From: an uncultured Fibrobacteraceae bacterium
Lineage (GTDB): Bacteria > Krumholzibacteriota > Krumholzibacteriia > LZORAL124-64-63
Direction of reading: 5' to 3'
NCBI GenBank assembly: GCA_964384055.1
Contig: CAYLIV010000012.1
Coordinates: 1,635 to 65,634, forward strand
DNA: 64,000 nt
Shown here: one piece after another, positions 580-44,786 of the stretch
Numbering within the stretch: the first letter of the stretch is position 1
Layout: each line of letters starts with the position of its first letter
Program-made: the position numbers and the translations under genes
The notes under the pieces: model-generated
Told to the model about the DNA's origin: nothing
Seen by the model: the letters and a program-made list of their open reading frames with translations, nothing else
Database searches by the model: none

Positions 580-1803
580 TCAGCTCGCCACCGGCTCTAC
601 ACCGGCACCATCCTGCTCGTTTGTCGCCGCTTGGTCGGCGGAGTTCTGGTCTTCCTGGGTCTCGATCCAGATCGGTTCTTCGATACCGAGGGTGTGGCTG
701 TAATTCTGCAGCTTCTCGAGCAGATTTTCGTTCACGACCTGTCCGGCGCTGACCAGCAGAACACCCGCCGTCGACTTCACATCACGGGCGAGGGTCATAT
801 CGCATAGCAGATCGCCGGTCAACATGGCGCGCTGACCGGTGCTGTCGGTATTCTCTTCGAAGATCCGGCAGAAGGCGTCCACCACCTTGGGATCGTAGTA
901 GCCGGTTCGTGCACGCAGGGTTTCGAAGGAATCGGCGGGACTGATCCCGCTGGCCTTCAGCGACTCGAAGTCGTTGATCACGTGCAGGATCCGTGCACCG
1001 ACCGGAATGTCATGGCCGGAAACCGGTTCGTCCGGGACGCCGGTGCCGTCGTAGTTCTTCATCTGGAGCCGGACGATGCGGGCGACGTCATCGAGTCGCG
1101 GAATATGGCTCAGAATCCGGGCGGTGATTTCGGGGAGCCGATCGACCTGATGCTGTTCTTCTTCGGTCAGTTGTTGGCCGTAATACAGTTTCGTGGTCAC
1201 TGCCTCGGTCAGCGTGATCGAACCGATCTGCGAGAACATGGCGGCGATCTCGATCTGCCAACGATCTTCGGAGCGCAGTGCCAGCGCCACGGAGATCGCC
1301 TGCTTCTTGATCCGGGTCACACGACCGAAGGCGGCCGGATCCGCCAGCGCCAGTACGTCCATCAGAGCCTGTACGCTTCCCTGCAACGTCTGCTCGAGCA
1401 GGACCTTCTCGGCGGTGAGCAGATGGTGCTGCTTGACCGCATCGACGAGCACGCCGCGCAGGACCGTGGCCGAGACCGGCTTGGTCATGAATCGGTAGAT
1501 ATGCCCGTAATTCACGGCATCGACGATGGTATCCATTTCGGCGAATCCGGTCAGCAGCAACCTGACCGTGTCCGGACACTTCGTATAGGCGTGTTTCAGA
1601 AAGGTCGCACCGTTCATCTGGGGCATTTTCATGTCGGACACGATGACCTCGAACGGCGCTTCGCGGTCGAGCATCTCGAGCCCCTCGGCTCCGCTCGTTG
1701 CCGTGGTCAGGTCGAAAGAGCCGCGCAGACTTCGTACCAGTGCCCGCAGGATCTTCTCGTCGTCGTCTACCAGAAGAACTCTGGGTTTTACTTTATCGGC
1801 CAC
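580..1803 (-). CDS. Response regulator with degenerate HD-GYP-like output domain (RpfG-like)
   Basis: N-terminal REC domain (VLLVDDD, VSDMKMP, FMTKP). HD-GYP-like region reads AAMFSQIG and NYDGTGVPD...IPVGARIL. GTG start with GGAG upstream. Confidence 0.88.
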   Translation of the reverse strand: MADKVKPRVLLVDDDEKILRALVRSLRGSFDLTTATSGAEGLEMLDREAPFEVIVSDMKMPQMNGATFLKHAYTKCPDTVRLLLTGFAEMDTIVDAVNYGHIYRFMTKPVSATVLRGVLVDAVKQHHLLTAEKVLLEQTLQGSVQALMDVLALADPAAFGRVTRIKKQAISVALALRSEDRWQIEIAAMFSQIGSITLTEAVTTKLYYGQQLTEEEQHQVDRLPEITARILSHIPRLDDVARIVRLQMKNYDGTGVPDEPVSGHDIPVGARILHVINDFESLKASGISPADSFETLRARTGYYDPKVVDAFCRIFEENTDSTGQRAMLTGDLLCDMTLARDVKSTAGVLLVSAGQVVNENLLEKLQNYSHTLGIEEPIWIETQEDQNSADQAATNEQDGAGVEPVAS

Positions 1804-1880
1804 TTTTCCACTCCCTGTCCGATTCGATGTTTCGACCCGGTTGCTGCCTGTTCAACCACCATCCGATCATCAGCCGATCA

Positions 1881-3134
1881 TCAGCCAATTGTCTCCTCGT
1901 CCGTCGCGCATCCGCACGGTTGCGGTTCGGTGGCGCAGGCGGGAATACGCACCGTAAAAGTGGTCCCGGAGCCCGGCGCCGATGCGCAGGCGATCGAACC
2001 GCCGAGTTTCTCCACGATGGTCGACCAGCAGATGAACAGACCCAGACCGGTTCCTTCGCCCACATCCTTGGTCGTGAAGAACTGGTCGAATATCCGGTCG
2101 CGAATATCATCCGGGATACCGTCGCCGGTATCGGATATGGTCATCACGACATCTGCTTCGTCCTGTAGCGTGCGTATCTCGATCGCGTCTTCGCGGTCCG
2201 CCTCGACCGGTCTGCGCTCGATGGCTTCGGTCGCGTTGAGAATCAGATTGAGCAGCACCTGTCCCATCTCATTCGAATTGCAGGCGATGGGCAGTACTTC
2301 GTCATAGTCGGTATGCACCGTCGTCCGCGCCTTGAACAGATGGGCGGCGACGGCGAGGGTGTCCCGGATCGTCCTGTTGAGATCGAGTTCCGCCTCGTTC
2401 TCGTCGTCCGTCGCCACGAAGTGCTGCATCGCCTTGATGACCATCGAGACCTGGCCGATGCCCTCGCGGGCCTCCTGAATCGAGACCGGGATCTCCTCGC
2501 GCAAGAACTCGAGATCCGCCTCCTCGACGGCCGCGTGCACGGCCTGTGACGACACGGAATCGCCGTCGACGCCGGGCGGCAGCTCGGTCACCGTTTTCAA
2601 CACATCGTCCAGCGTCGTGAACGAATCCTGCAGGAACTCCAGGCTATTGCCGATGTGCTGGATCGGTGAGTTGATCTCATGGGCGACGCCACCGGCGAGG
2701 TTGCCGATCGATTCCATCTTGCGGGCCTGGAACAGCGCCTGACTCTTCTCGAGGATCGATTTCTCGTAGGCGAGGGTACGCACACCGACGCCGATCCGGC
2801 TTTTCAACTCGGCAGCGTTTACCGGTTTGGTGACGTAGTCGTGTGCGCCGGCTTCGAGCGCCGCCACCACGTTTTTCGATTCGGTCAGGCTGGTTACCAG
2901 GATCGTGTAGGTCAACGGACTGTCGTCGCCGTGCACCTCGTTGCAGACATCGAGGCCGCTTTTGCCCGGCATCATCCAGTCCAGGATCGCCAGGCGAGGC
3001 GCATCGTCCTCGCGTAAGAACTGCAGCGCTTGCTCACCGTCCTCGGCGGTGACCGGATCGAAGCCCCACTTGGTCGTCAGGCTCTTGAGCATCTTCCGCG
3101 TTGTCGGGTCGTCATCGGCGATCAATATGCGCAT
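1881..3134 (-). CDS. Hybrid receiver-histidine kinase (NtrB-like)
   Basis: REC domain (ILIADDD, LDWMMP, YVTKP), H-box GVAHEINSP, N-box LLNLILNA, G-boxes ISDTGDGI and FTTKDVGEGTGLGL. Confidence 0.92.
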   Translation of the reverse strand: MRILIADDDPTTRKMLKSLTTKWGFDPVTAEDGEQALQFLREDDAPRLAILDWMMPGKSGLDVCNEVHGDDSPLTYTILVTSLTESKNVVAALEAGAHDYVTKPVNAAELKSRIGVGVRTLAYEKSILEKSQALFQARKMESIGNLAGGVAHEINSPIQHIGNSLEFLQDSFTTLDDVLKTVTELPPGVDGDSVSSQAVHAAVEEADLEFLREEIPVSIQEAREGIGQVSMVIKAMQHFVATDDENEAELDLNRTIRDTLAVAAHLFKARTTVHTDYDEVLPIACNSNEMGQVLLNLILNATEAIERRPVEADREDAIEIRTLQDEADVVMTISDTGDGIPDDIRDRIFDQFFTTKDVGEGTGLGLFICWSTIVEKLGGSIACASAPGSGTTFTVRIPACATEPQPCGCATDEETIG

Positions 3135-3336
3135 GGTGCCATCTCTCGTCTGGCCGTGGTTGCCGGCAAGCATGGGTGAATTCGTTTCCGGTCCAGCCCC
3201 GGGTCGGCGCCGCGGGCGAACGGGAACGCGACCCGAAACCAGGTATTTCAGTACGAATTACTTAGTGGAAATATCGGCTGCCGGCGGCAATCCTTGAGGC
3301 GAATACGGCAGGAAATCCGCTCCTGGCGGCCCGGAA

Positions 3337-7136: not shown

Positions 7137-7263
7137 CCGACCGCCTGCTTCCGTACGGTGTCGAGGCGCGCGGTACGACGGCGGCTTCCTGGTCCGCCGC
7201 ATCCGTCCGGTCGTCCTGGCGGCGGCTGTAGACGACGTCCGACTCCACGCGACGCGAAAATCA

Positions 7264-7272
7264 TGGTATACT
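7264..7272 (+). promoter_or_regulatory. Putative extended -10 promoter
   Basis: TG-G-TATACT about 40 bp upstream of the GTG at 7314. Confidence 0.45.
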
Positions 7273-7313
7273 CGAACGCGAGGACAACCGTGGCGGCAAC
7301 CGGGGAGGTACTC

Positions 7314-7943
7314 GTGTTTCTGCAGTTACGTTCCGCTCGGGGATGGCCGGGCGCGCCGGTGTTCCGGTTGCTGATCGGCCTGGCCGCCGCCGTCTCGATG
7401 GCCTGCGGTACGACGGCGTTGGCCCAGGTCGGTTGCGACGAACTCGCACCGCTCGACGCCGTGCCCGCCGCGCAGATCTGTGCCGGCTTCAGCTTTGACG
7501 GCGCACCATATGTCGCGCACAACGCGGAAGAGCTGCAGGTAGTCGTCAACGGGGGCTATACCACATACACCGATCGCGGTTTCATCGAGGCGGTCTTCCA
7601 GAACTACACCGTGGATCTGGGCAGTCCGGTCGGGGCGATGCTGAGCCTGTTCAACCAGGGCGAGACGGCCAACGCGGTGGACCTGTACGGGGAGCTCGAC
7701 GTGCCCGGCACGGTACCGATTGCCGATTGGACGGGCAGCGGCCTGGCGCGTTCCTTCGTGACCGGCTTCGCGACGGAGGTCCAGTTCCAGGAACTGTGCT
7801 TCTACGGCAGCGTCCTGATCATGTCGGGCGAAGACGAGGCGCTGGCCAGCGCCCGCTGCCTGGGCGAAGCGATCTGCGACTTGATCTACACCACGCCGTC
7901 GGCGACCTGTCCCTGGGGGAAGGCGAAGACGGTTTTCCATTAG
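7314..7943 (+). CDS. Secreted DUF6599-like protein with short C-terminal WxxxKxxFH motif
   Basis: RBS GGGGAGG then GTG; signal peptide ending TTALA-Q; core VVNGGYTTYTDRGF aligns with IINGGWELFATYGF (17862) and YINGGAELFLEFGF (47547). Confidence 0.62.
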   Translation: MFLQLRSARGWPGAPVFRLLIGLAAAVSMACGTTALAQVGCDELAPLDAVPAAQICAGFSFDGAPYVAHNAEELQVVVNGGYTTYTDRGFIEAVFQNYTVDLGSPVGAMLSLFNQGETANAVDLYGELDVPGTVPIADWTGSGLARSFVTGFATEVQFQELCFYGSVLIMSGEDEALASARCLGEAICDLIYTTPSATCPWGKAKTVFH

Positions 7944-8029: not shown

Positions 8030-9535
8030 ATGAGTAACGCGGACAAACCCGACTCGAATAACCACCAGCCGGCCGCGGACGAGCCCCGCCCGGTCACCCA
8101 TCACGACAATCTACGACCAGGCGCATGGAAGGATGGCGCGCCCTCGCGACGCGAGTTCCTCGGCTATACCGCGCTGGGAGCGGCCGGCCTGATCATGGGG
8201 CCGCGTCTGCTGGCGCCCGAACAGGCCCATGCCGGCCCGGGTCGCAGCCGCCGCGCCCAGAACGCCAAGATCGTCCGCGCCCATCATCCCGACGCGACCA
8301 GCCATATGAACACGGTGCACCAGGAGCCGGTCGACGACATGGTGCACGCCGCGATCCGGGAACTGACCGGCATCGGCGACACCGCCGCGGCCTGGGCGAG
8401 CCTCTTTCCCGATCTCACCGTGAGCAAGAAGATCGCCATCAAGATCAATCTCGCCTGCGGCGACGTGCCGACCCATCCCCAGGTGATCAACGCCATCATC
8501 GACGGCATCCTGATGGTCGACATCGGTGGGCAGACATTGCCCGAGGAGAACATCATCGTCTGGGATCTGGACAACGCCTTCCTGTGCGCGCAGACCGGTT
8601 ACGTGCCGAACTGGGGGGGACCTGGCGTGCAGTACGTGGGCACCGACCATCCGAGCGTCGGCTTCGACATGTTGTACGCCTTTCCCATCAGTCATCCCGA
8701 CGATTCGACGACCTACCACCATCCGTCACGGATCCTCACCCAGCACTGCGACTACCTGATCAACGCCGCGGTGATCAAGGACCACAGCGACTCCGAGGTG
8801 ACGCTCTGCCTGAAGAACCACTACGGGTCCTTCGACAACATCGCCATCAACGAGTTGCACCAGCACTGGTACTACGGCGACGGTCATGAACGCGGCGAGC
8901 CGGAGCTGAACCGGGTTCTGCGCGATGAACTCGGCGACAAGACGGTGCTGTACCTCATCGACGCCACCCTGGGGCTGTACGACGGCGGACCCGGCTACAT
9001 ACCACCCTGGCACACGCCGCCCAACTGGGCCTACAACAGCCTGCTGGCGGGCTTCGATCCGGTGGCCATCGACCGGATCGGGACCGAGAAGCTCACCGCG
9101 GAACGGCTGCAGCACGGGATCGAAACGCCGCTGGACCCGAGCCACGTGCGTTTCGCGGCCCAGCCGCCATACGAACTGGGTACGGACGATCTGGCGGAGA
9201 TCGATCTGGTCGAGATCGATGCGTCGACGGCCGTGCAGCCGGACGCGATCGGCGTACGATCGGTGGCGCTGCTGGCGCCGTATCCCAACCCGACACAGTC
9301 GTCGAGCACGGTGCGCTTCCGCTGCGGGACGGCAACCGAGGCCGACTTGCGGATCGTCGATGTGCGCGGCCGGCAGATACGGCAGCTGGCAACCGGCGCC
9401 TACGCTCCGGGTACGCATCGTTTCCTGTGGGACGGGCGCGACGACGGCGGCCGCGCCGTGCCGAGCGGTGTGTATTTCTGTTTGCTCGATTCGCAGGTCG
9501 GAGTGCAGAGACGGCGGGTCACGCTGGTGCGTTAG
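8030..9535 (+). CDS. Tat-exported DUF362 protein with FlgD-Ig/T9SS-like C-terminal domain
   Basis: RBS GGAGG; SRREFLG twin-arginine motif; KIN, INAAVIKDH, LKNHYG, D...GGP, DPVAID; C-terminal YPNP...WDGRDDGGRAVPSGVYF. Confidence 0.85.
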   Translation: MSNADKPDSNNHQPAADEPRPVTHHDNLRPGAWKDGAPSRREFLGYTALGAAGLIMGPRLLAPEQAHAGPGRSRRAQNAKIVRAHHPDATSHMNTVHQEPVDDMVHAAIRELTGIGDTAAAWASLFPDLTVSKKIAIKINLACGDVPTHPQVINAIIDGILMVDIGGQTLPEENIIVWDLDNAFLCAQTGYVPNWGGPGVQYVGTDHPSVGFDMLYAFPISHPDDSTTYHHPSRILTQHCDYLINAAVIKDHSDSEVTLCLKNHYGSFDNIAINELHQHWYYGDGHERGEPELNRVLRDELGDKTVLYLIDATLGLYDGGPGYIPPWHTPPNWAYNSLLAGFDPVAIDRIGTEKLTAERLQHGIETPLDPSHVRFAAQPPYELGTDDLAEIDLVEIDASTAVQPDAIGVRSVALLAPYPNPTQSSSTVRFRCGTATEADLRIVDVRGRQIRQLATGAYAPGTHRFLWDGRDDGGRAVPSGVYFCLLDSQVGVQRRRVTLVR

Positions 9536-9604
9536 CGGGCCGAGCCCTTCCGGGGGCCACCGACGGAGCTGCTCGGTTCGAGACCGGCCACCGCGTTGCG
9601 ATCG

Positions 9605-10981
9605 TCACCGCATGACCGTCAGCAGACGGCGCCGCACCTGGCTGCCGGTCTGCAGCCGCACGACGTACACACCGGTCGGCACCTTGCGGCCGGCGTCATC
9701 CTTGCCGTCCCAGGGTACGGTGGACGGTTCAGCGGCGTAGCTTCCGTGCGCCACCCGACGGACGACCCTGCCGCGCAGATCGACGATCTGGATGGCTGCT
9801 TCACCGGCGATCGCCAGCTGGAAGTGCAGGGTGGTCCCGTCCCGGAAGGGATTGGGCGTGTTGGGGCTCAGGGCGAGGTGGCGCGGTGCCGGCGGCGGCG
9901 GATCGGGATCATCGCCGGGGATGACCGGGTCGGCGGTCACCAGAGTCATCTGCGACGGATCGCCGACGCCCAGTTCGAATGGCGCGGCCGCCGCTTCCTC
10001 GATCCACGGACAGGGCTTTTCCGCGTAGCTCGCCGCAGTGCGCTGGGCGTTGATGGTATCCCGCGCCCAGTAGTCGTTGGTCACCGGATCGGTACTGACC
10101 AGCAGGGTATTGGGCGTCTGCTCGGGATAGAGGTCCCATCTCTGCGGCAGCGCATTCGGGCCGCCCGTGAAGGTGCCGCGCAGACAATCGGTGACCACCA
10201 GGCAGGTACGGTCCTTGATGCTGGCGTGGTTGTTGAGGGCCAGCATGCCGGGAATATCGCCGCACAAGCTCGAGGGCGTACACGAGCCGTAATGGTTCTT
10301 GAGAGCGACGGAGATCTGGTTGAGCGCGTTGTTGTGGCTCTTCAGGACCGGAATATTTATCAAGTAGTCGCAGTCCAGCAGGGTGCGGGACAGCTCGTAT
10401 TGCCCGTAGGGGAACTCGCCGGATCCGACCGCGTCGTTGTCGCCGGTCAGGGTGGGGCAGGCGCTGCCGAAACAGAAATCCTCCTGCGCGTAAGCGAAGC
10501 GCGTGATGTCGTGGTTGTCGAAGACGATCACGTGGCTCACGTCGTAACTACCGCCGAGCATCAGCGACAGACCCGAAACCACCCCGCGCACCACTTCCGG
10601 TCGCGTGTACGTGGGCCCGAGGGTGTTGACCTTGATGGCGATGGTCGAGGCGGCGTGCAGCCCGGGAAAGAGGGAAGCGAAGGCCTCGCCTGTGTCGTCG
10701 AGCTGGGTGAGCAGCCGGACCCCGTTGTGAATCGTGGCCTCGACCTGGTCGCGATCGATGACGGGCTCGTGACCGCCGAGCGCGGGATCGTGACAGAACA
10801 CGATACGCCCGGGCAAGCGGTTGCCGGCACCGTGCGGAGCGAGTCCGTCGAAGCGCGCCAGATGCCTGGCCATGGCAGGCGTCCCGGCGGCGGCCATGGC
10901 GCCCAGGGCGGAGAGCTTGATGAATGTCCGCCGGCTGGCGTAGAACCCGGAGAAGAAGCCGGCGTCGGTGTCGTGTTTCAT
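9605..10981 (-). CDS. Tat-exported DUF362 protein with FlgD-Ig/T9SS-like C-terminal domain
   Basis: SRRTFIK; KVN, INIPVLKSH, LKNHYG, GGP, TDPV; C-terminal PNPF...WDGKDDAGRKVPTGVY. Confidence 0.85.
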   Translation of the reverse strand: MKHDTDAGFFSGFYASRRTFIKLSALGAMAAAGTPAMARHLARFDGLAPHGAGNRLPGRIVFCHDPALGGHEPVIDRDQVEATIHNGVRLLTQLDDTGEAFASLFPGLHAASTIAIKVNTLGPTYTRPEVVRGVVSGLSLMLGGSYDVSHVIVFDNHDITRFAYAQEDFCFGSACPTLTGDNDAVGSGEFPYGQYELSRTLLDCDYLINIPVLKSHNNALNQISVALKNHYGSCTPSSLCGDIPGMLALNNHASIKDRTCLVVTDCLRGTFTGGPNALPQRWDLYPEQTPNTLLVSTDPVTNDYWARDTINAQRTAASYAEKPCPWIEEAAAAPFELGVGDPSQMTLVTADPVIPGDDPDPPPPAPRHLALSPNTPNPFRDGTTLHFQLAIAGEAAIQIVDLRGRVVRRVAHGSYAAEPSTVPWDGKDDAGRKVPTGVYVVRLQTGSQVRRRLLTVMR

Positions 10982-11007
10982 GTCGGTCCTCGTCGTTCGC
11001 GAACAAC

Positions 11008-12387
11008 CTACCGTGCCACTACCAGTCGCTGGCTTCTGACCAGTCGTCCTACCTGCAAGCGGGCGAAGTAGACACCGGTCGGTACGGCTCGCCCGTGGGC
11101 ATCCTTGCCGTCCCAGGACAGGCTGCTGTATCCCGCCGGGAAGCCGTGGCTGACCAGGTGCCGCACGAGTCGGCCGCGCAGATCGACGATCTGGACCGTG
11201 GCATCGTCGGCGGCGGCGAGCCGGAAGCGCAAGGTCGTGCGGTCGCTGAACGGATTGGGCGCGTTGGGTGCCAGGAAGGTGCCGCCCACCAGCAGGCCCG
11301 GCTCCTCCTCGACCCCGGTCGCATCATCATACAGGATCGTCATCTGGTGCGGATCGCTGACGCCGAGAAAGTACGGCTCTGCCGACGCCTGCTCGATCCA
11401 GGGACACGGCTTGGGGTTCCAGCCGTGGGCTGCGCGCTGCGCGTTGATCATGTCCCTCGCCCAGTACTCGTTGGTCACCGGATCGGTGGTCACCAGCAGG
11501 GTGTTGGGCGTCTCCTCGGGATAGAGGTTCCAGTCCATGGGCGGCGTGCTCGGGCCGCCGTTGAAAGTTCCGCGGATGCCGTCGGTGAGCACCAGTACCG
11601 TCTTGGGCTTGATATACTGATCCGTGTTGAGGGTCAGCATGGCGTTGATGTTGCCGCACATGCTCGACGGCGTGCACGAACCGTAATGGTTCTTCATGGC
11701 CACCGTGATCTGGTTGTTGCCGTCGCTGTGGCTCTTCAGGGCGGGTATGTTGATCGCGTAGTCGCAATCGATGAGGTACTGACTGAGCTCGTAGATGCCG
11801 TAGGGAAAGTAGTCCGAATTCCACGCGTTGTTCCCGCCGCTCAGCGTCGGGCAATTCCCGTTGAAGGTGAAACGTTCGGGCGTGTATCCGCGGTTGGAGA
11901 CCGGATCGCGGTCGTAGATGACGACATTGCTCACGTCATAGGTGCCGCCGAGCATCCGGGACAGGCCCGAGACCACGCCGCGCGCCACTTCCCAGCGCGA
12001 GAAGCAGGTACCGATGCAGTTGACCTTGATGGCGATGGTCGAACCGGCGTGCAGTCCGGGAAACAGCGATTCGAAGGCGAGATCCGTGCCGCTTTGCTGG
12101 GTCAGCAGTTCCACGCTGCGGAACACCGCGGCCTCGACGGCATCCACGTCGGGAGTGCCGTGGCCGTTCATGTCCGTGTCGTGGCAGATGACGATCCGAC
12201 CAGGTAACGTGTTGCTGCGACTGGCTTTCGGGTTTTGGCCGTCGAACTGGGCGAGATGCCGGGCCATGGCCGGGGCGCCCGCCATGACCATGGCGCCCAG
12301 GGCCGAGAGCTTGATGAACTGCCGCCGATCGGGGTAGAAACCCGAAAAAAAGCTCGTCGAGTTATTCCGCGTGTCGCTTTTCGCCAT
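11008..12387 (-). CDS. Tat-exported DUF362 protein with FlgD-Ig/T9SS-like C-terminal domain (tandem paralogue of 9605-10981)
   Basis: DRRQFIK; KVN, INIPALKSH, MKNHYG, DGIRGTFNGGP; C-terminal PNPF...WDGKDAHGRAVPTGVYF. Confidence 0.85.
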   Translation of the reverse strand: MAKSDTRNNSTSFFSGFYPDRRQFIKLSALGAMVMAGAPAMARHLAQFDGQNPKASRSNTLPGRIVICHDTDMNGHGTPDVDAVEAAVFRSVELLTQQSGTDLAFESLFPGLHAGSTIAIKVNCIGTCFSRWEVARGVVSGLSRMLGGTYDVSNVVIYDRDPVSNRGYTPERFTFNGNCPTLSGGNNAWNSDYFPYGIYELSQYLIDCDYAINIPALKSHSDGNNQITVAMKNHYGSCTPSSMCGNINAMLTLNTDQYIKPKTVLVLTDGIRGTFNGGPSTPPMDWNLYPEETPNTLLVTTDPVTNEYWARDMINAQRAAHGWNPKPCPWIEQASAEPYFLGVSDPHQMTILYDDATGVEEEPGLLVGGTFLAPNAPNPFSDRTTLRFRLAAADDATVQIVDLRGRLVRHLVSHGFPAGYSSLSWDGKDAHGRAVPTGVYFARLQVGRLVRSQRLVVAR

Positions 12388-12549: not shown

Positions 12550-15500
12550 CTAGCCCCGGATCTGCAAACGCAGGCGAATATCGTGGTCCGTGATCCACGC
12601 GGCGCCGTCGTCTCGGGATCGACTCCAGCCGTACTGCAACTTCACCGAGAAATTCCGCTGCGGGCGGACGCTGACCGTCGCCGTCAGCGCCTGCTTGCGC
12701 GAGTTGTCGCTGCCGGCGGTGACGCCGGGCGAACGGTCTTCTGCGCTGGACCAGGTGAGCGAACCGCCCAGGTTGGCGTCGAGCTGCCAGCGCTCGCGAC
12801 GCCAGGTGATCCGGGCCTGGGGGCTCCAGAGGTTTTCGCGCTGCCCGACCTGGCCGGTCCAGGAGTCGTTGCGCTGCGCTTCCAGGGCCACGAAGGTGAG
12901 CAGACCGCCGCCCCAGGTCTGATCCCACTGTCCGAAGAAACGCCGGCGTTCGAGCCGGTTGAAGAAGGACTCGCTGTCGCTGCCGATGGCCCGCACGGTC
13001 ACGAGTCCGCCGCGCGGTCGGATCTCCAGTCGACTTTCGAGTTGCCGGCTGTCGCTGTCGGTGGTCAAGCCTTCCTGGACCAGCGAGCCGGATTCCATTT
13101 GCCAGCGTTCGATCAGCCGCACGCGCGAGAAGAGCTGCACTCTGGTTTCGAAGACGTCGCTGCGCGATCGGTTGCGTCGCGACACGGCATCCGCCGCGCC
13201 GAACAGGTTGCCGGTCGCCGGCTGCGCGATCCCCGGTTCACCGTTCTCGTTGTCGGTCACGCCGATGTCCCAGCGTAGCGAGAGGCGTGACAGCTGCTTC
13301 GACAGGCGCCCGGGATAGAAGTGCATCGTGGTCAGCAGCACGCGATTGGTGGCGAAACCGCCGCTGCCACCGCCCGGATACCAGAACAGGTTGCGGTCGG
13401 CCTCGTAACGCAGGTAGGCGTCGAGGCTCGCGTGCGGCTGCGACTGCAGGGTGGCGTCGACCTCCTGGAAGCGGCGCAGATCGCGCGCCGTAGCGCTTCC
13501 GGACTGGAAAGTGCGGCTGTCCTCGAACGCGACGTTCCAGGACAGGGGATTGCCGGCCGATCCGTTGAGGCGTACGAACGCATGGTTCGTGCTGCGCCGC
13601 AGGCCGCCGTCGACGCGCGGGATGCCGGCACTGTCCTCGTCGTCGGTCGCAAAATCGCGATCGCTGCGCTGGAAGAAGGCGCGCAACCACAACCGGCGAA
13701 TGCCCAGGGCAGCCAGTCGTCGCCGGTCGGGACTGAGTTCCAGCTCGGCGCGGCTGACCCATTTTTCGCGGCTGGCGCCCGCGGCGTCGATGTCCACGCG
13801 TCCGCGTTTCACCTCCAGGTTCGGCCAGCCCGAGCGTCGCCAGCGTACCGTGCCCATCAAGGTCGATTCCTCTCCACGGCCCGTACCCGGCTCGGTCTGC
13901 GTGCCGGCAGCGAACACATCGCCCGCCGCCACCTGGTCCGACGCCGAGCGGTCCCATTCGATTTCCGCCTGGAGCTGCTGGTTCACATTCCACAGGCCGC
14001 GCGCTCGCGACTGCTCGCGCAACCTGCCCAGCAGCGTGCGGCGATCCTCGAAGGAACGATAGTCCGCACCCAGGTCCCGGTGCCGCGCCGAGAGTTCGAG
14101 GCCGCGGTAGCGGCCTTGCACGCCGAGGCTCGAGGCGCGACCGGGATTCTCGTTCGCCGATCCGCCGCCGGCAGAGGCGGCTGTCTGGCTCACGGCCATT
14201 TCCGGGGTCAGGCGCAGCAGGTAACGATCGTCTTTCCACTCCAGGCGCGCGTTCAGATCCGCAGTCGTGACGTCGCTGCCGTCCGCGTCCGTCCAGCGGG
14301 TGGCGCCGGCGCCGGCATAGACCTGATCGCTGGGCGAAATCCCCACCTGGGCGGCACTGATCATGCTGTCGTCTTCGTCGTCGTTCGACGAGGCGCGCAG
14401 CCCCACCTCGTACAGATATTCGACCTCGATCACCGAGTCCTCGTCGAGCAGCACATGTTCGAACAGGACGAACAGGCCGCTGGTGTGAATCAATGAATAG
14501 TCGACGCCCGCCTGCAGGAGCTCCCGATCGATGATTATGCGTTCGGACCCCGGGACCAGATCGCGGTGACCGAGCTGGTAGGTGTTGCGCGTCGCCTGAT
14601 AGCTGTAGTTGAAGGTATACACGTTGGTGGACGGATCGGCGTACACCTCGTCGGGAAACGGCTGCGCCGCCGGCAAGGCGAGCATGCCGGTGATGGGGCT
14701 GAAGCGATGCGGATCGACCAGGCCGTCGCCGTCGGTGTCAAGGCCGAACGACTCGAGATAGGGTGTGCCCGAGACGTCGGCGATCGCGCCGTTGGTATCG
14801 ACCAGGGCGACCGCCAGCGAACCCGGCACCGGGTCCATGGCGATCCAGTAGTGGTTACGCAGGGCGAGGTGGGTCAGCTCGATCTCCGCCTCGGCGCCGG
14901 GCGGTGCGCCCGTGTTGTGCACCGCGACCAGGGCGTGATCGGCTGCCAGCGCCGCGGCGAGCACCAGCGAGTCGCCGCGCGGTCCGATCACGTAGTCGAC
15001 GTTGGGCCGCAGTCGATCCCAGGCGCCCGCGACACCGGCCAGTTCGCCGTGAATCGTGTTGGCGTTGTCGGAGAGGTCGTCCTTGTCGTCGCGATAGACA
15101 GACGCCTCGCGCAGATCCGCGGCGGTCCAGGCGGCGGGTAACGGAAACACCGCGCCGGCTGCGTAATCGACGTCCCGGGTGGAGGTCTCGACAAGTTGGT
15201 TGCCGCCCAGGAAAACGTCGCGTCCCGGTTTGGTGCGTCGCCGTCCGACCCAGGCGTCGGCGGCCACCCGGCGGCGACGTGAGCCGGCCAGCCGTTCGCC
15301 CAGCTCGGCGCGCACGCGACCGCCACGCAGGCCGGTACCCGGGGTCAGGTCGGTGTTGAAGGGCGTCATGTCGATCTCGCCGACACTGACGGTCCGCAAC
15401 ACGTCAGTGCGGCGGCCACGAAAGGTCAGCTGGTAGGCGGCGTTGTCCGGATCGGTGCTGTCGTAAAAACCGCTGAGGGTGCGGTCCTCGCTCACCTGCC

Positions 15501-16866
15501 CGGTGAGCAGGAGATCGAGTCGCGTTTCGGTCGCCAGGTCGCCAAGACCGGTGGTGCCCGCGGCGCTGTCGTCGTCTTCGACGAAGATCGTGGCACCGCC
15601 CTTGAGGTGCAGATCGGCCCCGCCCGGAGTTTCGACGCCCAGCCCGGCCTCGTCCAGACCGACCCGCCAGCCGGCTTGCGCGGGATCGGCATCGGCCAGC
15701 GCAGATTCCAGGATTTCCCGGCTGCGGTAGGAGAAGAGACTGGGATTGTCCTGGCCCTGGCTCAACCCGTAGACGATACGCTCGTCGCCGAGCAGCACGA
15801 GGGTCTCGCCGAGCCAGGCCAGTTCGTGGACCTCGGCGGGCGCCATGGGCACGCTGGTGGTGAAATCGATCCAACGGCCCGTTGTCCGCTCGTACACGGC
15901 GAAGGCTTGTTCGGTCACGACCCAGAAACGATCCGGCGCCACGGCGACGCTGCGCACCCGTCGGCCGGGCATCTCGTTGTTGGAATCGTCCCGGCGCCAG
16001 ATGCCCGATTCGGCCAGAAAACTCCACAGACCGTCGTCGGTACCGAGCCACAGATCGTTTCCCTGCTGCACGAGCTGGTGGATCCGAGCGTCCGGCAGAT
16101 CGACACCCGGCAGATAGCTCGTCCAGGTGTGCAGATCGGTATCGTAGCGGGCGATGCCGGCATCCGTCACCGCGTAGAGTACGCCGGTGCCCTCGCGCAG
16201 GGCCAGCACCCGCGGCGAGTGGAGATGGCCGAGCCGCTCGTCGATGCGAAAGCTCTCGGCGTCCTTGCGATACTCGGCGACACCGTGTTCGAGGGCGAAC
16301 CAGGCATACTGGTCACCCACGGCCACATCGGCCACCGGGCCCAGAGGCACGCCTTCGGGACCAGGCAAGGGTTCCCATTCGAGGATGAACTGGTCGAAGC
16401 GGGCGGCGCCGGCGTCGGTGCCCGCGTAGGCGTAGTCGGCGTCGGCGTCCACGTCGAAGACCAGACGGCCCGGATAGCCTTCGCCGGGGCCGTAGCACTG
16501 CCAGTCGTCGAAGCGCAGATCCGAGACACAGGCGCGTTTGCCTCCGATCCAGAGGTTGGCGTCGGCAACGGAGAAGCCGCCCAGGGGTGCGCCGGGAAGC
16601 CCGTCGGCGGCCGTGGTGGTGGTCCAGGTCTCGGAGTTCGGCTGGAAGCGATAGAGCGCGGCCGGGGTGAGGATCAGTATGCGGTCCTCGTTCTCGATGA
16701 TGCGGGGGCGGAGATCCTCGGGCGAGGTCGCGCCGAAGGGCTGCAGCTCGTCGAGGCCGGCCGCCGGCCCGGCACCGAGCAGCGCCGCCACCATGACGAG
16801 GGGCCACGGCGACATCGCCAGAAAGCCCACCGGCCGAACCGTCCGCGCGATGTGCGCGGGTATCAA
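12550..16866 (-). CDS. Large outer-membrane protein (about 1438 aa): signal peptide, beta-propeller, SprA-like region and C-terminal beta-barrel strands
   Basis: TTG start overlaps the upstream TGA, with RBS GAGGAG. Repeated propeller blades (LWLGTDDGL, AYAGTDAGAARF). SprA-like motifs GQVSEDRTLSGFYDST, VGEIDM, PNVDYVI, VPGSERIIID...GVDYSL. Amphipathic beta-strands to the C-terminus. Confidence 0.72.
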   Translation of the reverse strand: MIPAHIARTVRPVGFLAMSPWPLVMVAALLGAGPAAGLDELQPFGATSPEDLRPRIIENEDRILILTPAALYRFQPNSETWTTTTAADGLPGAPLGGFSVADANLWIGGKRACVSDLRFDDWQCYGPGEGYPGRLVFDVDADADYAYAGTDAGAARFDQFILEWEPLPGPEGVPLGPVADVAVGDQYAWFALEHGVAEYRKDAESFRIDERLGHLHSPRVLALREGTGVLYAVTDAGIARYDTDLHTWTSYLPGVDLPDARIHQLVQQGNDLWLGTDDGLWSFLAESGIWRRDDSNNEMPGRRVRSVAVAPDRFWVVTEQAFAVYERTTGRWIDFTTSVPMAPAEVHELAWLGETLVLLGDERIVYGLSQGQDNPSLFSYRSREILESALADADPAQAGWRVGLDEAGLGVETPGGADLHLKGGATIFVEDDDSAAGTTGLGDLATETRLDLLLTGQVSEDRTLSGFYDSTDPDNAAYQLTFRGRRTDVLRTVSVGEIDMTPFNTDLTPGTGLRGGRVRAELGERLAGSRRRRVAADAWVGRRRTKPGRDVFLGGNQLVETSTRDVDYAAGAVFPLPAAWTAADLREASVYRDDKDDLSDNANTIHGELAGVAGAWDRLRPNVDYVIGPRGDSLVLAAALAADHALVAVHNTGAPPGAEAEIELTHLALRNHYWIAMDPVPGSLAVALVDTNGAIADVSGTPYLESFGLDTDGDGLVDPHRFSPITGMLALPAAQPFPDEVYADPSTNVYTFNYSYQATRNTYQLGHRDLVPGSERIIIDRELLQAGVDYSLIHTSGLFVLFEHVLLDEDSVIEVEYLYEVGLRASSNDDEDDSMISAAQVGISPSDQVYAGAGATRWTDADGSDVTTADLNARLEWKDDRYLLRLTPEMAVSQTAASAGGGSANENPGRASSLGVQGRYRGLELSARHRDLGADYRSFEDRRTLLGRLREQSRARGLWNVNQQLQAEIEWDRSASDQVAAGDVFAAGTQTEPGTGRGEESTLMGTVRWRRSGWPNLEVKRGRVDIDAAGASREKWVSRAELELSPDRRRLAALGIRRLWLRAFFQRSDRDFATDDEDSAGIPRVDGGLRRSTNHAFVRLNGSAGNPLSWNVAFEDSRTFQSGSATARDLRRFQEVDATLQSQPHASLDAYLRYEADRNLFWYPGGGSGGFATNRVLLTTMHFYPGRLSKQLSRLSLRWDIGVTDNENGEPGIAQPATGNLFGAADAVSRRNRSRSDVFETRVQLFSRVRLIERWQMESGSLVQEGLTTDSDSRQLESRLEIRPRGGLVTVRAIGSDSESFFNRLERRRFFGQWDQTWGGGLLTFVALEAQRNDSWTGQVGQRENLWSPQARITWRRERWQLDANLGGSLTWSSAEDRSPGVTAGSDNSRKQALTATVSVRPQRNFSVKLQYGWSRSRDDGAAWITDHDIRLRLQIRG

Positions 16867-17801
16867 CCCAACTCCTCGACCCGTAAACTCGTCAGATCGA
16901 GCGTGCCGAGGCCGTGCTCGGCGGCGTAGCGGAGATAGGCGACCTGTTCGGGCCGCAGCGTCATGCTGTTCCAGGTGGCCAGGCCGGTGCCGTAGGCGTC
17001 GACCGCTACCGGATCGGTACCCACGACCACGCCCCCGAACGGATCGGTCTGGCCCGGACCCTGCGGTCCACCGGTCTTGAGGATCACCGCGGCGTCGAGA
17101 ATGGTCAGTTGCGGCTTGAGAACCGTCGCCAGGTCGGCGACGCCCTGATGCAGATCCATGTCCTGATGGAAGCACTCCCGGTTCCAGATCAGGCCCATCA
17201 GGTTCTTGATGCCGAAACTGACACCGGTCGCCGAATGGGATTTGGCCGTGGGCAGATTGATCAATACGTCGGCCTTCTGTACGGCGGCGGGAATAGCCGT
17301 CTCGTGCAGCGCCTTGCCGGCGGGTACGGCGACCGGGCGGTACGTCTTCTCCTTGTCGAGGGAAACGAGCTTGGCCTTGGTAAATGCGGCAACCGCCGCC
17401 TCGGTGCCGTTGATCTGGAAACAACGCTGCGGATCGCTCATGGTGTGGTCGACCACCAGCACGCGCCGCGCGCCGGCACCGAGGCAGGCGTCGATCACGG
17501 CGGAGAGCACGTCCGGGTGGGTGGTGGCGCCGAGCTCCGGCGGCCGCGGGAAGCTGGCGTTCGGTTTGACGATCACGACCTGGTCCGGCTTGACGAAACG
17601 TTCCATGCCGCCCACGGCGGCCAGCGCGGCCGCCACGGCGGATCGCGGTTCGCCCCGCGCCAGCACAAGATCGGGCGGATCGGCTGCGCCGGCTTCAGCC
17701 GGTGTATCGGCGTGGGCCACGTCCAGCAACCGCGCCGGCGGCAACAGCAGCCCGGCTCCGATCAGACGCGCACCAGCTGACAGGAAATATCGTCGTTTCA
17801 T
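16863..17801 (-). CDS. Tat-exported stand-alone DUF362 protein
   Basis: MKRRYFL; VIVKPN, ATTHPDV, INLPTAKSH, GIKNLMG, GGPQG, DPVAVD; RBS GAGGAG. Confidence 0.9.
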   Translation of the reverse strand: MKRRYFLSAGARLIGAGLLLPPARLLDVAHADTPAEAGAADPPDLVLARGEPRSAVAAALAAVGGMERFVKPDQVVIVKPNASFPRPPELGATTHPDVLSAVIDACLGAGARRVLVVDHTMSDPQRCFQINGTEAAVAAFTKAKLVSLDKEKTYRPVAVPAGKALHETAIPAAVQKADVLINLPTAKSHSATGVSFGIKNLMGLIWNRECFHQDMDLHQGVADLATVLKPQLTILDAAVILKTGGPQGPGQTDPFGGVVVGTDPVAVDAYGTGLATWNSMTLRPEQVAYLRYAAEHGLGTLDLTSLRVEELG

Positions 17802-17861: not shown

Positions 17862-18470
17862 TCAGCTCGTGATTTCCTGAACGATGTGCTGCGCCATCAG
17901 GGTCATGACCGTCAGCGTATCGTTGGCGAAGCTGCTGAACAGCAACGTGACCACGTACTGGTCCTGGCGCAAATGGACGGTGTAACTGCCCAGGTCCTGT
18001 TGCGAGTAGGCCTCGGTCCCGATGCCGTTCATGGCCGTCCATGAGCCCTCGATCGTCAGTTCCTCCAGCACGGCGGCCGCATTGTCGACATCGGTCTGGT
18101 CGTAGATCTGGATCGTGCCATTGGCGGTGTCGGTGCCGATGGTGCCGGTGTAACTCTGTTCGACCATCTCCTGGAAGCCGTAGGTGGCGAACAGCTCCCA
18201 GCCGCCGTTGATGATGTCGTTGAGTTCCGTATCGTTGGTGGCGATGCTGGGCTCGCCCGTCTGGGCCAAGCTGGCGTCGCCGGGTGGGAGAAAATCTCGA
18301 GGGTGTTTCGTCGTCGATCCGTCTTCGCTGCAGCCGGCGGCCAGTAGCACCAACATCACCAGCAGCACCGAAGACATGCGCCGCAGACTCGCGGCGCCGG
18401 AGCGGCGGTCGCTTTTCTCTCGGATCCGGTCGGGTCGGCTCACGGGTTCGCTGTGGATACCTGGCGTCAT
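17862..18470 (-). CDS. DUF6599-like lipoprotein
   Basis: Lipobox LAAG-C; IINGGWELFATYGF, IQIYDQ. The start may be the ATG at 18377. Confidence 0.65.
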   Translation of the reverse strand: MTPGIHSEPVSRPDRIREKSDRRSGAASLRRMSSVLLVMLVLLAAGCSEDGSTTKHPRDFLPPGDASLAQTGEPSIATNDTELNDIINGGWELFATYGFQEMVEQSYTGTIGTDTANGTIQIYDQTDVDNAAAVLEELTIEGSWTAMNGIGTEAYSQQDLGSYTVHLRQDQYVVTLLFSSFANDTLTVMTLMAQHIVQEITS

Positions 18471-18749
18471 TCTCTTCCCTTCCTGCCGTTATGAGCGCTG
18501 CTGAGGGGATCCGGAGCTCGAATTGCGTCTAGTATTCTACCACCTGTGTCCATGCCTCACAATCCGCGAATGCAAGAGCCACGAATGCAGGAGCCGTTGC
18601 CCGGATCGCACCCCGCGCTGGACCGGGGGCGGGTTCCGGTAAAGATGAACCACCAACGGCCGATACCATCAGCATACCTGATTTGACGAGTGGCCGCACG
18701 AGCAGATCGTCGCGGTACGGGCTGTGGACAAGGAAAACACCCTGAGCGG

Positions 18750-20504
18750 ATGATCAAGGACGAACTGACAACAGCCAACTGCGGCATTCTCGACCACGTT
18801 CCCCTCGGTATGTGCGTGATCGGTCCGGATTTCACGGTTCGCTTCTGGAACCGTTGCCTCGAGAAATGGACCGGCATCAGCTATGGGGAAATCGTCGGTA
18901 CGGTGATTCTCGATCACTTTCCACATTTTGGCGAACCACACTATTTCTCGACGCTGGAGAGCCTGTTCCACGGCGGCCCGCCGGTCGTCTTCGCCTCGCA
19001 GCAGCACGGTATCCTCTTTCCGCCCAGGCACGCGGAGCAGGAGCCGCGGGTCCAGGTCACCACGGTCACGCCAATCCCCGATTCGGACGGCTACTCCTTC
19101 GCCGCGTTGATGGTCATCGAGGACGTGACCGAACTTACCAGCCGCATCGAGGCCTACAAGAAGATGCGCGACCAGGCGCGGATGGAGATCGAGCAACGCA
19201 AGCAGGCGGAACGGCAGCTCAAGGCGGCCAAGCAGGAGGCTGATTCGGCCAACGAGGCGAAATCGGTGTTCCTGGCCAGCATGTCCCACGAACTGCGTAC
19301 GCCGCTCAACAGCATGCTGCTGCTCTCGAAGCACCTGGCCGACAACAGGGACGGGAACCTAACGCAGCGGCAGATCGAGTCGGCGGAGACGATCAACAAG
19401 GCCGGTCATGACCTGCTCGACCTGATCAACGATATTCTCGACCTGTCGAAGGTCGAGGCCGGAAAGGTCGAGTTCGAGATCACCGCGGTCGATCTACGGG
19501 AGTTCACCGAGGACCTGGGGCGGACCTTGCGCCCCCTTGCCGTCCAGAAGGATCTCGAATTGAAGATCGAGATTGCTGAAGATGTACCGTCCAGCATTAT
19601 TTCGGACGGTCAGCGAGTGCATCAGATCGTCAAGAACCTCGTCGCCAACGCCATCAAGTTCACCGAAACAGGCAGCGTGACCGTCGGTGTCGAGCGACCG
19701 GTCCTTTCGGCCGAACCACCTGCCGGCGAGGCCTCGTCGCAGCCGCTGATCACAATTTCGGTGACCGACACGGGTATCGGGATTCCGCCAGGAAAACAGC
19801 ATTTGATCTTCGAACCGTTCAAGCAGGAGGACGAGACCACGTCCCGGAGATACGGCGGCACGGGACTGGGCCTGTCGATTTCCAGGAGCCTCGCCGAGGC
19901 CCTCGGCGGCAGCCTGTCCGTGACCAGCACGCCGCAGGTGGGCAGTACATTCACCCTCACGCTACCTGAGACCGCACCGGAAGCGCTGGGCCGAGCCGCC
20001 GAGCCGGCGGCCGTCGGCCAGGCAGCCGGGCCGCAGACCGGCCGGCACGACGAAACCACCGCCGGTCCGGTGGACGACCAGACTATGATTCTGGCTCAGG
20101 ACCAGGACGAGACGGTCTCCTTCGCGAACCAAAAGGTCTTGCTGGTCGATGACGACATGCGTAACAGCTTCATCCTGACCTCGATGCTCGAGGATCTGGA
20201 TGTGGACGTCAGCGTGGCGGCCAACGGGGCTGAAGGTCTGGAGCGACTTTACGCGGATCCCGAGATCGATCTGGTGCTGATGGACATCATGATGCCGGAG
20301 ATGAACGGCTACGAGGCCATGGCCGAGATCCGCCGGCGAGACGAGTACCGCGACCTGCCCGTCATCGCAATCACCGCGCTGGCCATGGCCGACGACCGCG
20401 AACGCTGCCTGGCCGCGGGCGCCACGGACTATCTCGCCAAGCCCTTCGAGTTCTCCGCGCTCTGTCGCCTGCTTCGGCAGAGATTGCCGGTCGGACAGCG
20501 TTAA
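18750..20504 (+). CDS. PAS-domain hybrid sensor histidine kinase with C-terminal receiver
   Basis: PAS-like N-terminus (FWNRCLEKWTG), MSHELRTPLN, NAIKFT, DTGIGI, GGTGLGL, REC domain (VDDD, MDIMMP, LAKP). Confidence 0.93.
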   Translation: MIKDELTTANCGILDHVPLGMCVIGPDFTVRFWNRCLEKWTGISYGEIVGTVILDHFPHFGEPHYFSTLESLFHGGPPVVFASQQHGILFPPRHAEQEPRVQVTTVTPIPDSDGYSFAALMVIEDVTELTSRIEAYKKMRDQARMEIEQRKQAERQLKAAKQEADSANEAKSVFLASMSHELRTPLNSMLLLSKHLADNRDGNLTQRQIESAETINKAGHDLLDLINDILDLSKVEAGKVEFEITAVDLREFTEDLGRTLRPLAVQKDLELKIEIAEDVPSSIISDGQRVHQIVKNLVANAIKFTETGSVTVGVERPVLSAEPPAGEASSQPLITISVTDTGIGIPPGKQHLIFEPFKQEDETTSRRYGGTGLGLSISRSLAEALGGSLSVTSTPQVGSTFTLTLPETAPEALGRAAEPAAVGQAAGPQTGRHDETTAGPVDDQTMILAQDQDETVSFANQKVLLVDDDMRNSFILTSMLEDLDVDVSVAANGAEGLERLYADPEIDLVLMDIMMPEMNGYEAMAEIRRRDEYRDLPVIAITALAMADDRERCLAAGATDYLAKPFEFSALCRLLRQRLPVGQR

Positions 20505-20569
20505 CGTCGCGCCCCGTGCAGTCCGGCGCTCCGCGCGCCGCGCCGCGAATCCAGTAAACAGATCGAATG

Positions 20570-22399: not shown

Positions 22400-22627
22400 T
22401 TAGTCGCCCAGTTTCGTGCGATGTATTTGATTCGGCAGGAATTCGTCGCGATTAACCGATTTTCTGCGGCAATTCGTTGGTGGAGAATCGCGGCCGCCGC
22501 CGGCAGGCATCTCCGAGGCAGTCGCGCATGCAAAGTGAGTGTAGATATACTTTCCGGGCAAACGTATGCTACGGGTGTATGCGCAGAAGCCAATCGTGGA
22601 TCAGCAGCTACGAACACGGCAGGCCGC

Positions 22628-24019: not shown

Positions 24020-24266
24020 TATATACTTGCTTGTAACAAGTGACATCGTTGCAGTCATTCGACACTATACGTTGTGGTACTGAACGTATGTTCATTGTTC
24101 CGTGGGATAGGAGTCGGTGGTACGGGGTCAGCGTTCGTGGGGCGAGTCGTGGATGCGACTGCCCGTGCGGAGGTTGATCGACTGATTTGGCCAGTCGTTT
24201 CTTGAACGGGATCGGGCTCGCGCGCAGCGTGAGTGAACGATCCTTACCGTCTCCTGGGGGGCACCG

Positions 24267-26870: not shown

Positions 26871-26893
26871 ACAGACAGACAGATGGCAGCCGG

Positions 26894-30025: not shown

Positions 30026-30067
30026 CACGAGCCCGCTGAACCGGGCCGGATCAGGAGACGAAACACC

Positions 30068-30898: not shown

Positions 30899-30966
30899 AC
30901 ATTCCTCATGCGCCGCCGGCGGGATAAGTCGGGTCGGCACGGCGAAGGATCGGCGAGGCGAAATCC

Positions 30967-31671: not shown

Positions 31672-31712
31672 CCGGTTCGATCCGGTATTTCCAGGTATGC
31701 GGAGCGGTTTTT

Positions 31713-31721
31713 TGGTATACT
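31713..31721 (+). promoter_or_regulatory. Putative extended -10 promoter
   Basis: TG-G-TATACT about 75 bp upstream of the ATG at 31798. Confidence 0.45.
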
Positions 31722-31797
31722 TGTAGGGCATCCCCTGCCAAGCGCCGGAATCACTCGGGTCGCACGTCGGCTCTTCTGTTCTTTGGAGGACTGGTTG

Positions 31798-44545: not shown

Positions 44546-44786
44546 GGTAGTCACCGCCAGGAGAGCGAGTTGCGTCGGGGAGACGAACAGCATGAGTATA
44601 CAGGAAAAGTTCGGTCGGGTACAGGGCCCGGCGGGGCGGTGGCGCTCGATCCAACCGCAACTCGACCGTTCGGCGGGCAAGAGAAAATGCGTGACCACCA
44701 CCGCATGGGCATTCTAGTATCTGTCCTCTGACCTGATCTCTGGCCGCCGTGCGGTCGAGTGTCACCACCGGCTCTGGGAGATACTT

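Follow-up and report, generated by a model that had tools for sequence, protein, structure and literature searches.

According to reviews, all type IX secretion system (T9SS) effectors carry a signal for the general secretory (Sec) pathway (PMC10202324; also PMC8047123, PMC11285876 and PMC9251779), and T9GPred demands “no Tat signal” (Tat, twin-arginine translocation), a rule from 102 experimentally known cargo proteins (bioRxiv 10.1101/2023.03.31.535141). The T9SS barrel SprA passes folded proteins (PMC9251779), and the type II secretion system (T2SS) accepts Tat-exported cargo (PMC4899797). We found no published report of a Tat-dependent T9SS cargo, within an incomplete coverage of the literature, and nothing in the literature on a T9SS in Eisenbacteria. 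Here we describe a 64-kb stretch of DNA, hereafter called the window, from an uncultured marine bacterium present at about 12x depth in a marine metagenome (G+C of the window 62-70%). Three of its genes, A, B and C, encode proteins that combine a Tat signal, a DUF362 enzyme domain and a T9SS-like C-terminal domain (CTD). On evidence that is computational throughout, we consider it likely that a two-step route, with Tat first and a T9SS-type system second, carries these proteins to the cell surface or into the medium.

Gene A (8030-9535, + strand) encodes 501 amino acids (aa), with a Tat signal, DUF362 and a C-terminal FlgD-Ig/T9SS-like domain, while gene B (9605-10981, - strand; 458 aa) and gene C (11008-12387, - strand; 459 aa) encode a Tat signal, DUF362 and a T9SS type-A-like CTD. 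Re-translation gave complete open reading frames (ORFs) at these coordinates for all three, and B and C are 58% identical. The DUF362 model PF04015 (gathering score 24 bits) scores 49.3 bits on A, 42.2 on B and 27.7 on C, and the FlgD_ig model PF13860 (gathering score 27 bits) scores 33.6, 33.3 and 35.1, respectively; all six values exceed their thresholds. The three are most likely paralogous secreted enzymes of the DUF362 family. An earlier reading of this DNA, hereafter the original prediction, had placed the Tat motifs SRREFLG, SRRTFIK and DRRQFIK and a FlgD-Ig/T9SS-type tail on three DUF362 proteins, in agreement with the Pfam and NCBIfam scores; its view that characterised T9SS cargo is mostly described as Sec-exported agrees with the reviews PMC10202324, PMC8047123 and PMC11285876. 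Its count of three stands for the combination of Tat signal and CTD, but the Tat-DUF362 genes in the window number five, since D4 and D5, which have no CTD, also contain the RR (twin-arginine) motif and pass the DUF362 threshold (162.8 and 50.5 bits).

How do these proteins compare with the described systems? Like the type-A T9SS cargo of Bacteroidota (Porphyromonas gingivalis RgpB; Flavobacterium johnsoniae ChiA, RemA and NucA), they end in an immunoglobulin (Ig)-like sandwich of about 80 residues behind a flexible linker, and their CTDs share the PNPF, D-x-x-G-R and basic C-terminal motifs and match solved CTDs. Unlike that cargo, they have a twin-arginine instead of a Sec signal, their host lies outside Bacteroidota, and Pfam favours FlgD_ig for the tail. 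The Tat-dependent T2SS, as used by Pseudomonas aeruginosa phospholipases (PMC4899797), offers the parallel of Tat export of a folded protein followed by an outer-membrane system accepting folded cargo, but the second step proposed here would use a CTD and a SprA-like barrel, not a T2SS secretin. The export signal, the secretion tail and the pore fold are each known, and it is their combination and gene context that have not been described before.

The predicted Tat signal of A covers 8030-8233 (+; 68 aa), with the twin-arginine (RR) codons of SRREFLG at 8147-8152 and a predicted cleavage between AHA and G (N-terminus ...GAPSRREFLGYTALGAAGLIMGPRLLAPEQAHA, then G). That of B covers 10868-10981 (-; 38 aa), with the RR codons of SRRTFIK at 10928-10933 and cleavage predicted between AMA and R (...FYASRRTFIKLSALGAMAAAGTPAMA, then RH), and that of C covers 12262-12387 (-; 42 aa), with the RR codons of DRRQFIK at 12322-12327 and again a predicted cleavage between AMA and R (...FYPDRRQFIKLSALGAMVMAGAPAMA, then RH). 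In all three signals the n-region is extended, the motif reads RR-x-F-[LI], the h-region is weakly hydrophobic, an A-x-A site is present, and a basic residue lies in or near the c-region. When the N-terminal peptides were scanned alone with the Tat model TIGR01409 (cut-off 16.7 bits), A scored 24.0, C 19.0 and B a marginal 17.3; D5 scored 16.7, and the N-terminal peptides of five other CTD proteins of the window gave no match. On the full-length proteins, A alone was reported. The maximal Kyte-Doolittle mean over 12 residues is 1.5-1.8 in the DUF362 signals, as compared to 2.6-3.1 in the Sec-type CTD proteins. A weaker hydrophobicity of the h-region is a known difference of Tat signals from Sec signals. 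The Sec-type CTD protein encoded at 24237-26870 (+) also contains an RR pair, ARRSYW (NARRSYWSVVLMLFALTIAG), without the F-L-K context, and has a strongly hydrophobic h-region and no TIGR01409 match, which makes it a useful negative control for scans that use RR only.

The motif is conserved far beyond the window. A database search with B returned about 70 full-length relatives with 43-54% identity; those that bear names belong to Candidatus Eisenbacteria or Krumholzibacteriota, and nearly all combine DUF362 with FlgD_ig. The n-regions of these relatives cannot be aligned, yet [ST]RR[DE]FLK is present in almost every complete sequence. In a family alignment of 47 members (32-58% identical to B overall), R17, R18 and F20 are invariant; no other positions are invariant except the putative catalytic residues K117, N119, D155, K214, K228, H230, G232, S233, D298 and R314 and a few structural ones. 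Judged by this alignment, the Tat motif and the putative catalytic residues are under equally strong selection.

Is the Tat signal a property of the CTD proteins in general, or of the DUF362 proteins among them? We gathered 71 related loci, taken from a collection in which a single genome stands for each species, and called CTD ORFs with a hidden Markov model of the nine CTDs of the window. The window and these loci contain 35 DUF362-CTD ORFs, 4 of which are cut by contig ends. All 31 with an intact N-terminus have the RR motif (three were missed by the automatic filter and confirmed by eye), as against none of the 26 other CTD ORFs (Fisher p ~2e-15). When the CTD profile was compared with 1.84 billion representative proteins, a single one of the 150 best matches had an RR-like N-terminus; as these matches are mostly multi-repeat giant proteins, the figure is a background rate and not a census. 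The 31/31 versus 0/26 split and this 1/150 background indicate a genuine link between Tat and CTD that is specific to DUF362. For the window and about 30 related loci, this bears out the claim of the original prediction that the combination is specific to DUF362.

These data bear on the reading in which the twin arginines are incidental to ordinary Sec signals and the enzymes are exported unfolded by Sec. Sec signals often have basic n-regions, an RR pair (ARRSYW) also occurs in one of the Sec-type CTD proteins of the window, and D4 has no TIGR01409 match. Against this, RR-x-F is invariant in 47 sequences that cannot otherwise be aligned in their n-regions, the signals show the full S/T-R-R-x-F-L-K consensus, their h-regions have a markedly lower hydrophobicity than those of the Sec-type cargo, the two classes of CTD ORFs split 31/31 versus 0/26, and Armatimonadota relatives have a tatA gene within their DUF362 module. 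The conservation data, as read from the sequences, count strongly against the Sec reading, which we regard as highly improbable.

The S/T-RR-x-F-L-K motif is also found on distant DUF362 proteins that have no CTD, in Poribacteria, Anaerolineae, Aminicenantes, Planctomycetota, Armatimonadota and Desulfobacterales; in these proteins a lipobox often comes directly after the signal. Two Armatimonadota loci have a tatA gene (72 aa, MFMVFGLQGQELIVILIIVLILFGGRKIPELMRSLG...) between a Tat-DUF362 gene and a DUF6599-like gene (L059:3979-4197, +; L053 near 4192, +). The generic exported Tat-DUF362 proteins of Poribacteria, Anaerolineae, Armatimonadota, SAR324 and others have the same Tat motif and catalytic residues as those described here and, in many cases, an adjacent DUF6599 lipoprotein partner; they differ in having neither the CTD nor the SprA-like barrel, and many are Tat lipoproteins, with a Cys after the h-region. 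The CTD-bearing form was found in metagenome-assembled genomes (MAGs) of Eisenbacteria, Krumholzibacteriota, Fermentibacteria, KSB1, Latescibacterota and Stahlbacteria. As D4, D5 and the distant CTD-less relatives carry the signal, Tat export would be an ancestral trait of exported DUF362 proteins, and the distribution fits a CTD that was added, in particular lineages among candidate phyla related to the Fibrobacteres-Chlorobi-Bacteroidetes (FCB) group, to a family already dependent on Tat. The database name of one relative (JGI) reads DUF362 / FlgD Ig-like / TAT signal; the architecture is already visible to annotators, but not discussed.

The CTDs of A (9278-9535, +; the last 85 aa and the stop codon), B (9605-9883, -; residues 367-458) and C (11008-11265, -) align without gaps. 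The last 85 residues of the three likewise align gaplessly with those of six other proteins of the window, including an M28 peptidase, a BNR/sortilin protein and a beta-helix protein, whose N-termini are Sec-type or unseen. The nine share the consensus N-x-PNPFNP-x-TTIRF...D-x-x-GR-x-V...W-D-G-R-D...SG-x-Y...R-K-x-x-L-x-[KR]. With the T9SS type-A sorting-domain model TIGR04183 (cut-off 23 bits), B scores 31.0 and C 28.9. The AlphaFold (AF2) model of B, with a mean predicted local distance difference test score (pLDDT) of 87.8, consists of the signal helix, an alpha/beta enzyme domain (55-350), a Pro-rich linker of low confidence (354-366) and a sandwich of seven beta-strands (369-456) with a pLDDT of about 90 or more. 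In a Foldseek search against the PDB, the best matches of this model are the CTDs of PorU (6za2, E 6.7e-6) and PorZ (5m11), followed by FlgD, by the CTD of mirolase (8qb1) and by that of NucA as captured in the T9SS (8glk_D). The T9SS-type tail claimed for A, B and C is thus borne out by the TIGR04183 scores of B and C, the gapless alignment, the seven-strand fold and the matches to the CTDs of PorU, PorZ, mirolase and NucA. The same CTD is present on Sec-type cargo, and therefore the system handling that cargo should also see A, B and C.

Nine proteins with this CTD are encoded within 64 kb; besides A, B and C, they lie at 24237-34257 (+), 41900-44713 (-) and 63616-63999 (-). Four of the genes stand in a row (24237-26870, 26852-30025, 30026-30898 and 31672-34257, +), the last encoding the M28 peptidase. 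Nine such proteins in 64 kb, the BNR/sortilin protein among them, suggest that the organism leans heavily on this tail.

In an alternative reading, the CTD is an Ig-like module of the FlgD type that serves in binding or has a structural role, and the enzymes would remain periplasmic once Tat has exported them. In Pfam, the FlgD_ig score of the domain exceeds its Por_Secre_tail score. The CTD profile matches 451,951 representative clusters at E values up to 0.001 (among the 1.84 billion representatives), and its best scorers (P0178-P0327) are giant proteins in which the Ig-like domain is repeated internally, in up to 23 copies; moreover, no paper demonstrating T9SS machinery in Eisenbacteria was found. 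In A, B and C, however, no other domain ever follows it, and its end has the basic-x-x-aliphatic-x-basic pattern of all the other cargo-like proteins of the window (M28 peptidase, BNR/sortilin and beta-helix proteins); B and C pass TIGR04183, and the best structural matches are the CTDs of PorU and PorZ. A SprA-like gene is present in the same operon, and the occurrence of D4 and D5, without CTDs, beside CTD-bearing paralogs fits differing destinations. On balance, a purely periplasmic Ig-like module seems improbable, and we infer that the CTD is used for outer-membrane translocation in this phylum.

The surrounding cassette, which the original prediction had missed, is the more novel part of the locus. 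It is a minus-strand block of five genes, in the order DUF6599 lipoprotein (17862-18470, -; lipobox LAAGC; PF20244, 35 bits), D4 (16863-17801, -), a protein of 1426 aa (12550-16830, -), C and B. The DUF6599 gene is the first of the cassette, and A is convergent to the block. D4 (312 aa) is a Tat-signal DUF362 protein (MKRRYFLS) without a CTD, and its homologs also have the RR motif. The order DUF6599, CTD-less Tat-DUF362, large protein and DUF362-CTD is kept in Eisenbacteria, Krumholzibacteriota and further MAGs, while the cassette is present but permuted in Latescibacterota and Stahlbacteria. Throughout this synteny, the D4-type gene lies immediately upstream of the gene for the large protein. 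A shorter class of the large protein (about 1210 aa) occurs in the same cassette, where a different, Sec-type CTD protein follows.

A DUF6599 (PF20244) lipoprotein adjoins a Tat-DUF362 protein three times in the window. In addition to the pair in the cassette, D5, the fifth Tat-signal DUF362 protein (46148-47458, +; KRREFLQ; no CTD), is paired with a DUF6599 lipoprotein at 47547-48458 (+; lipobox LTAGC; PF20244, 58 bits), and a DUF6599-like predicted lipoprotein lies directly upstream of A (7263-7943, +; start codon uncertain; shared NGG..F..GF motif). The product of the latter gene was retrieved together with DUF6599 proteins by jackhmmer, and a DUF6599-like gene also stands beside A-type genes in loci L001 and L007. 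The adjacency of DUF6599 and Tat-DUF362 genes recurs across many phyla; of 73 related loci, at least 24 show it (for example L029, L034, L036, L041, L049, L051, L056, L059 and L062); the two form a conserved two-gene module.

What is the large protein between D4 and C? It has a Sec-type signal, an N-terminal Reg_prop-type propeller and a predicted giant beta-barrel of about 36-38 long strands, a count taken from the DSSP string only. Pfam, its SprA models included, gave no match, and every database relative is called hypothetical. The AF2 model of residues 228-1427 has a pLDDT of 82.9 and a predicted TM-score (pTM) of 0.72. In a Foldseek search of the PDB with this model, the top four matches are all SprA: 8gl6_A (E 2.5e-21, query TM-score (TMq) 0.56), 8gl8_A, 6h3i_A and 6h3j_A. 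The next fold is MtrB (6r2q_B, E 2.8e-7), which SprA precedes by 14 orders of magnitude. When the profile of the barrel family was compared with PDB sequences, SprA was the only barrel matched (E 0.2), in a region colinear with the match to the SprA/Sov model TIGR04189. A profile search from the barrel alignment for a canonical SprA or extra paralogs returned the family itself and one weak match. The family comprises about 57 database clusters in the two size classes (about 1400 and 1210 aa), all from Eisenbacteria-like MAGs and all in the same cassette.

The protein thus resembles SprA/Sov (6h3i, 6h3j, 8gl6 and 8gl8) as a giant barrel formed by a single chain, with about 36-38 predicted strands as compared to the 36 of SprA. 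Unlike SprA, it has an N-terminal Reg_prop-type propeller, fails TIGR04189 and the Pfam SprA models, and shares a fixed operon with the genes of a DUF6599 lipoprotein and of a Tat-DUF362 protein, neither of which is a known T9SS component. On the strength of the predicted fold, we regard it as very probably a distant, compact member of the SprA fold family that current models miss. The presence of the gene for this barrel in the same operon makes a CTD-driven translocation across the outer membrane more plausible.

The main rival reading is that the cassette encodes a stable trans-outer-membrane complex instead of a secretion route, with the barrel as a sheath or dock, as in MtrA-MtrB-MtrC. 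D4 and the DUF6599 lipoprotein would lie inside and B or C outside, and the paralogs would act on a substrate or relay it across the membrane. The order of periplasmic paralog, barrel and surface paralog is kept across phyla, MtrB is the best structural match other than SprA (6r2q_B, E 2.8e-7), and D4 and DUF6599 always accompany the barrel, while the fourth gene can be another CTD protein. On the other side, the SprA match is better by 14 orders of magnitude, DUF362 has no haem or Fe-S motifs, and the many other CTD proteins of the genome need a general translocon. We consider such a complex unlikely; it would add to the two-step secretion route and not replace it, because the surface partner would still need Tat and the CTD.

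Why would a DUF362 enzyme use Tat? No solved structure was matched by the sequence of the DUF362 domain. The best Foldseek match of the catalytic part of B is a LarA-like nickel-pincer-nucleotide (NPN) enzyme, 9q3k_A (E 1.6e-4, 316 aligned columns), in agreement with the placement of DUF362 beside the LarA N-terminal domain in Pfam clan CL0471 (PMC11770544). LarA and the DUF2088 NPN racemases and epimerases are the closest described comparison by clan and predicted fold, and DUF362 also has invariant Lys and His residues. It has no match to LarA at the sequence level, however; the known LarA homologs are cytoplasmic, and the window contains none of larB, larC and larE, the genes for cofactor synthesis. 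The Pfam text ties DUF362 to iron-sulfur (Fe-S) proteins. An Fe-S cofactor as the reason for Tat was rejected, and an Fe-S centre is unlikely, because the DUF362-CTD family has no cysteine cluster; a tethered organic or metal cofactor is possible. From the membership in the LarA clan and one moderate Foldseek match, we infer that a cofactor may be the cause of Tat export. The spacing of 16 between K214 and H230 in DUF362 equals that between K184 and H200 of LarA, and serves as a lead only, not as a test. A role of DUF362 as the SprA Plug protein was also considered and rejected, as Foldseek with the model of B gave no Plug match.

Taken together, these observations suggest the following two-step route.

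Tat export: The enzyme would fold in the cytoplasm, probably around a cofactor or metal. The S/T-R-R-x-F-[LI]-K signal would then direct it to the Tat translocase, and the signal would be cut at the A-x-A site.

Outer-membrane passage: The CTD, on its flexible Pro-rich linker, may direct the folded enzyme through the SprA-type barrel, a step suggested by homology, fold and gene context, with the cell surface or the medium as the predicted endpoint. D4 and the DUF6599 lipoprotein, the constant partners of the barrel gene, probably act with the barrel on the periplasmic side.

Both steps fit known biology, because SprA passes folded proteins and the T2SS takes Tat substrates. The original prediction had read the same order, Tat and then CTD, from the proteins, and every in-silico test run agrees with it. 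Several results nevertheless weigh against the two-step route or against parts of it. D4 gives no TIGR01409 match despite its KRRYFLS motif, and A, with 20.6 bits, falls just under the TIGR04183 cut-off of 23. The Ig-like domain also occurs as an internal tandem repeat, and therefore the fold alone is no proof of a secretion signal. The 1426-aa protein scores 20.5 bits on TIGR04189 (E 5.6e-5), far under the 200-bit cut-off, and the barrel of the cassette is about 1000 residues shorter than SprA. As for the cofactor, the resemblance to LarA is moderate (TMq 0.30 across the whole protein), and the 47-sequence alignment of the DUF362-CTD family contains invariant Lys and His residues but no conserved Cys cluster. 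None of tatABC, porV, porU and gldKLMN lies within the window. Finally, the locus is absent from three small metatranscriptomes of the same study, in which it has no transcripts.

A wider reading, which we put forward tentatively and hold to be rather doubtful, is that the cassette represents an unrecognised compact relative of the T9SS translocon in Eisenbacteria, Krumholzibacteriota, Latescibacterota and allied phyla, with its own accessory proteins and a dedicated, Tat-fed and cofactor-loaded cargo. If it were true, the Bacteroidota model would understate the age and the variety of T9SS-type pores and overstate their tie to Sec, and DUF362 and DUF6599 would be either new partners of the translocon or the ends of an enzyme relay across the outer membrane.

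The two-step route itself has several consequences. The Sec-only rule for T9SS cargo would be too narrow, given a conserved, phylum-spanning family in which a strongly selected Tat signal occurs together with a T9SS-type tail. A further prediction is that T9SS-type pores can accept proteins folded, and perhaps loaded with a cofactor, in the cytoplasm, which would be useful for the surface display of cofactor enzymes. Two large domains gain a handle: DUF362, with a LarA-clan fold that would work outside the cell, and DUF6599, its constant lipoprotein partner. Moreover, an unannotated family of SprA-like barrels, missed by the standard models, bears on how, or whether, the many CTD proteins of uncultured phyla related to the FCB group are secreted.

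Further observations concern the cassette and its variants. In a scan for promoters and terminators, the DUF6599 gene and gene C had sigma-70-like sites upstream, which were weak and did not exceed those in shuffled sequences. In a cassette with the short barrel, the fourth gene (L075:14001-16022, +) encodes a Sec-type CTD protein of 673 aa with an N-terminal C-x-x-C (WCTYCPDAY), and a second DUF6599 gene follows it. Solitary C-type DUF362-CTD genes, without the barrel cassette, occur in five loci (L010, L011, L012, L017 and L019). A glyceraldehyde-3-phosphate dehydrogenase (GAPDH) gene recurs about 5 kb upstream of them and a second CTD-less Tat-DUF362 gene about 4 kb downstream, in what looks like a kept gene order of one Eisenbacteria subgroup. 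The flanks of the cassette in the window (580-3257, -, and 18690-23836) contain genes for hybrid histidine kinases/response regulators and for HD-GYP- or HDOD-type proteins. Among them, a PAS-HisKA-HATPase-REC gene (18690-20504) is divergent from the cassette, as it is on other cassette-bearing contigs, and may encode its regulator.

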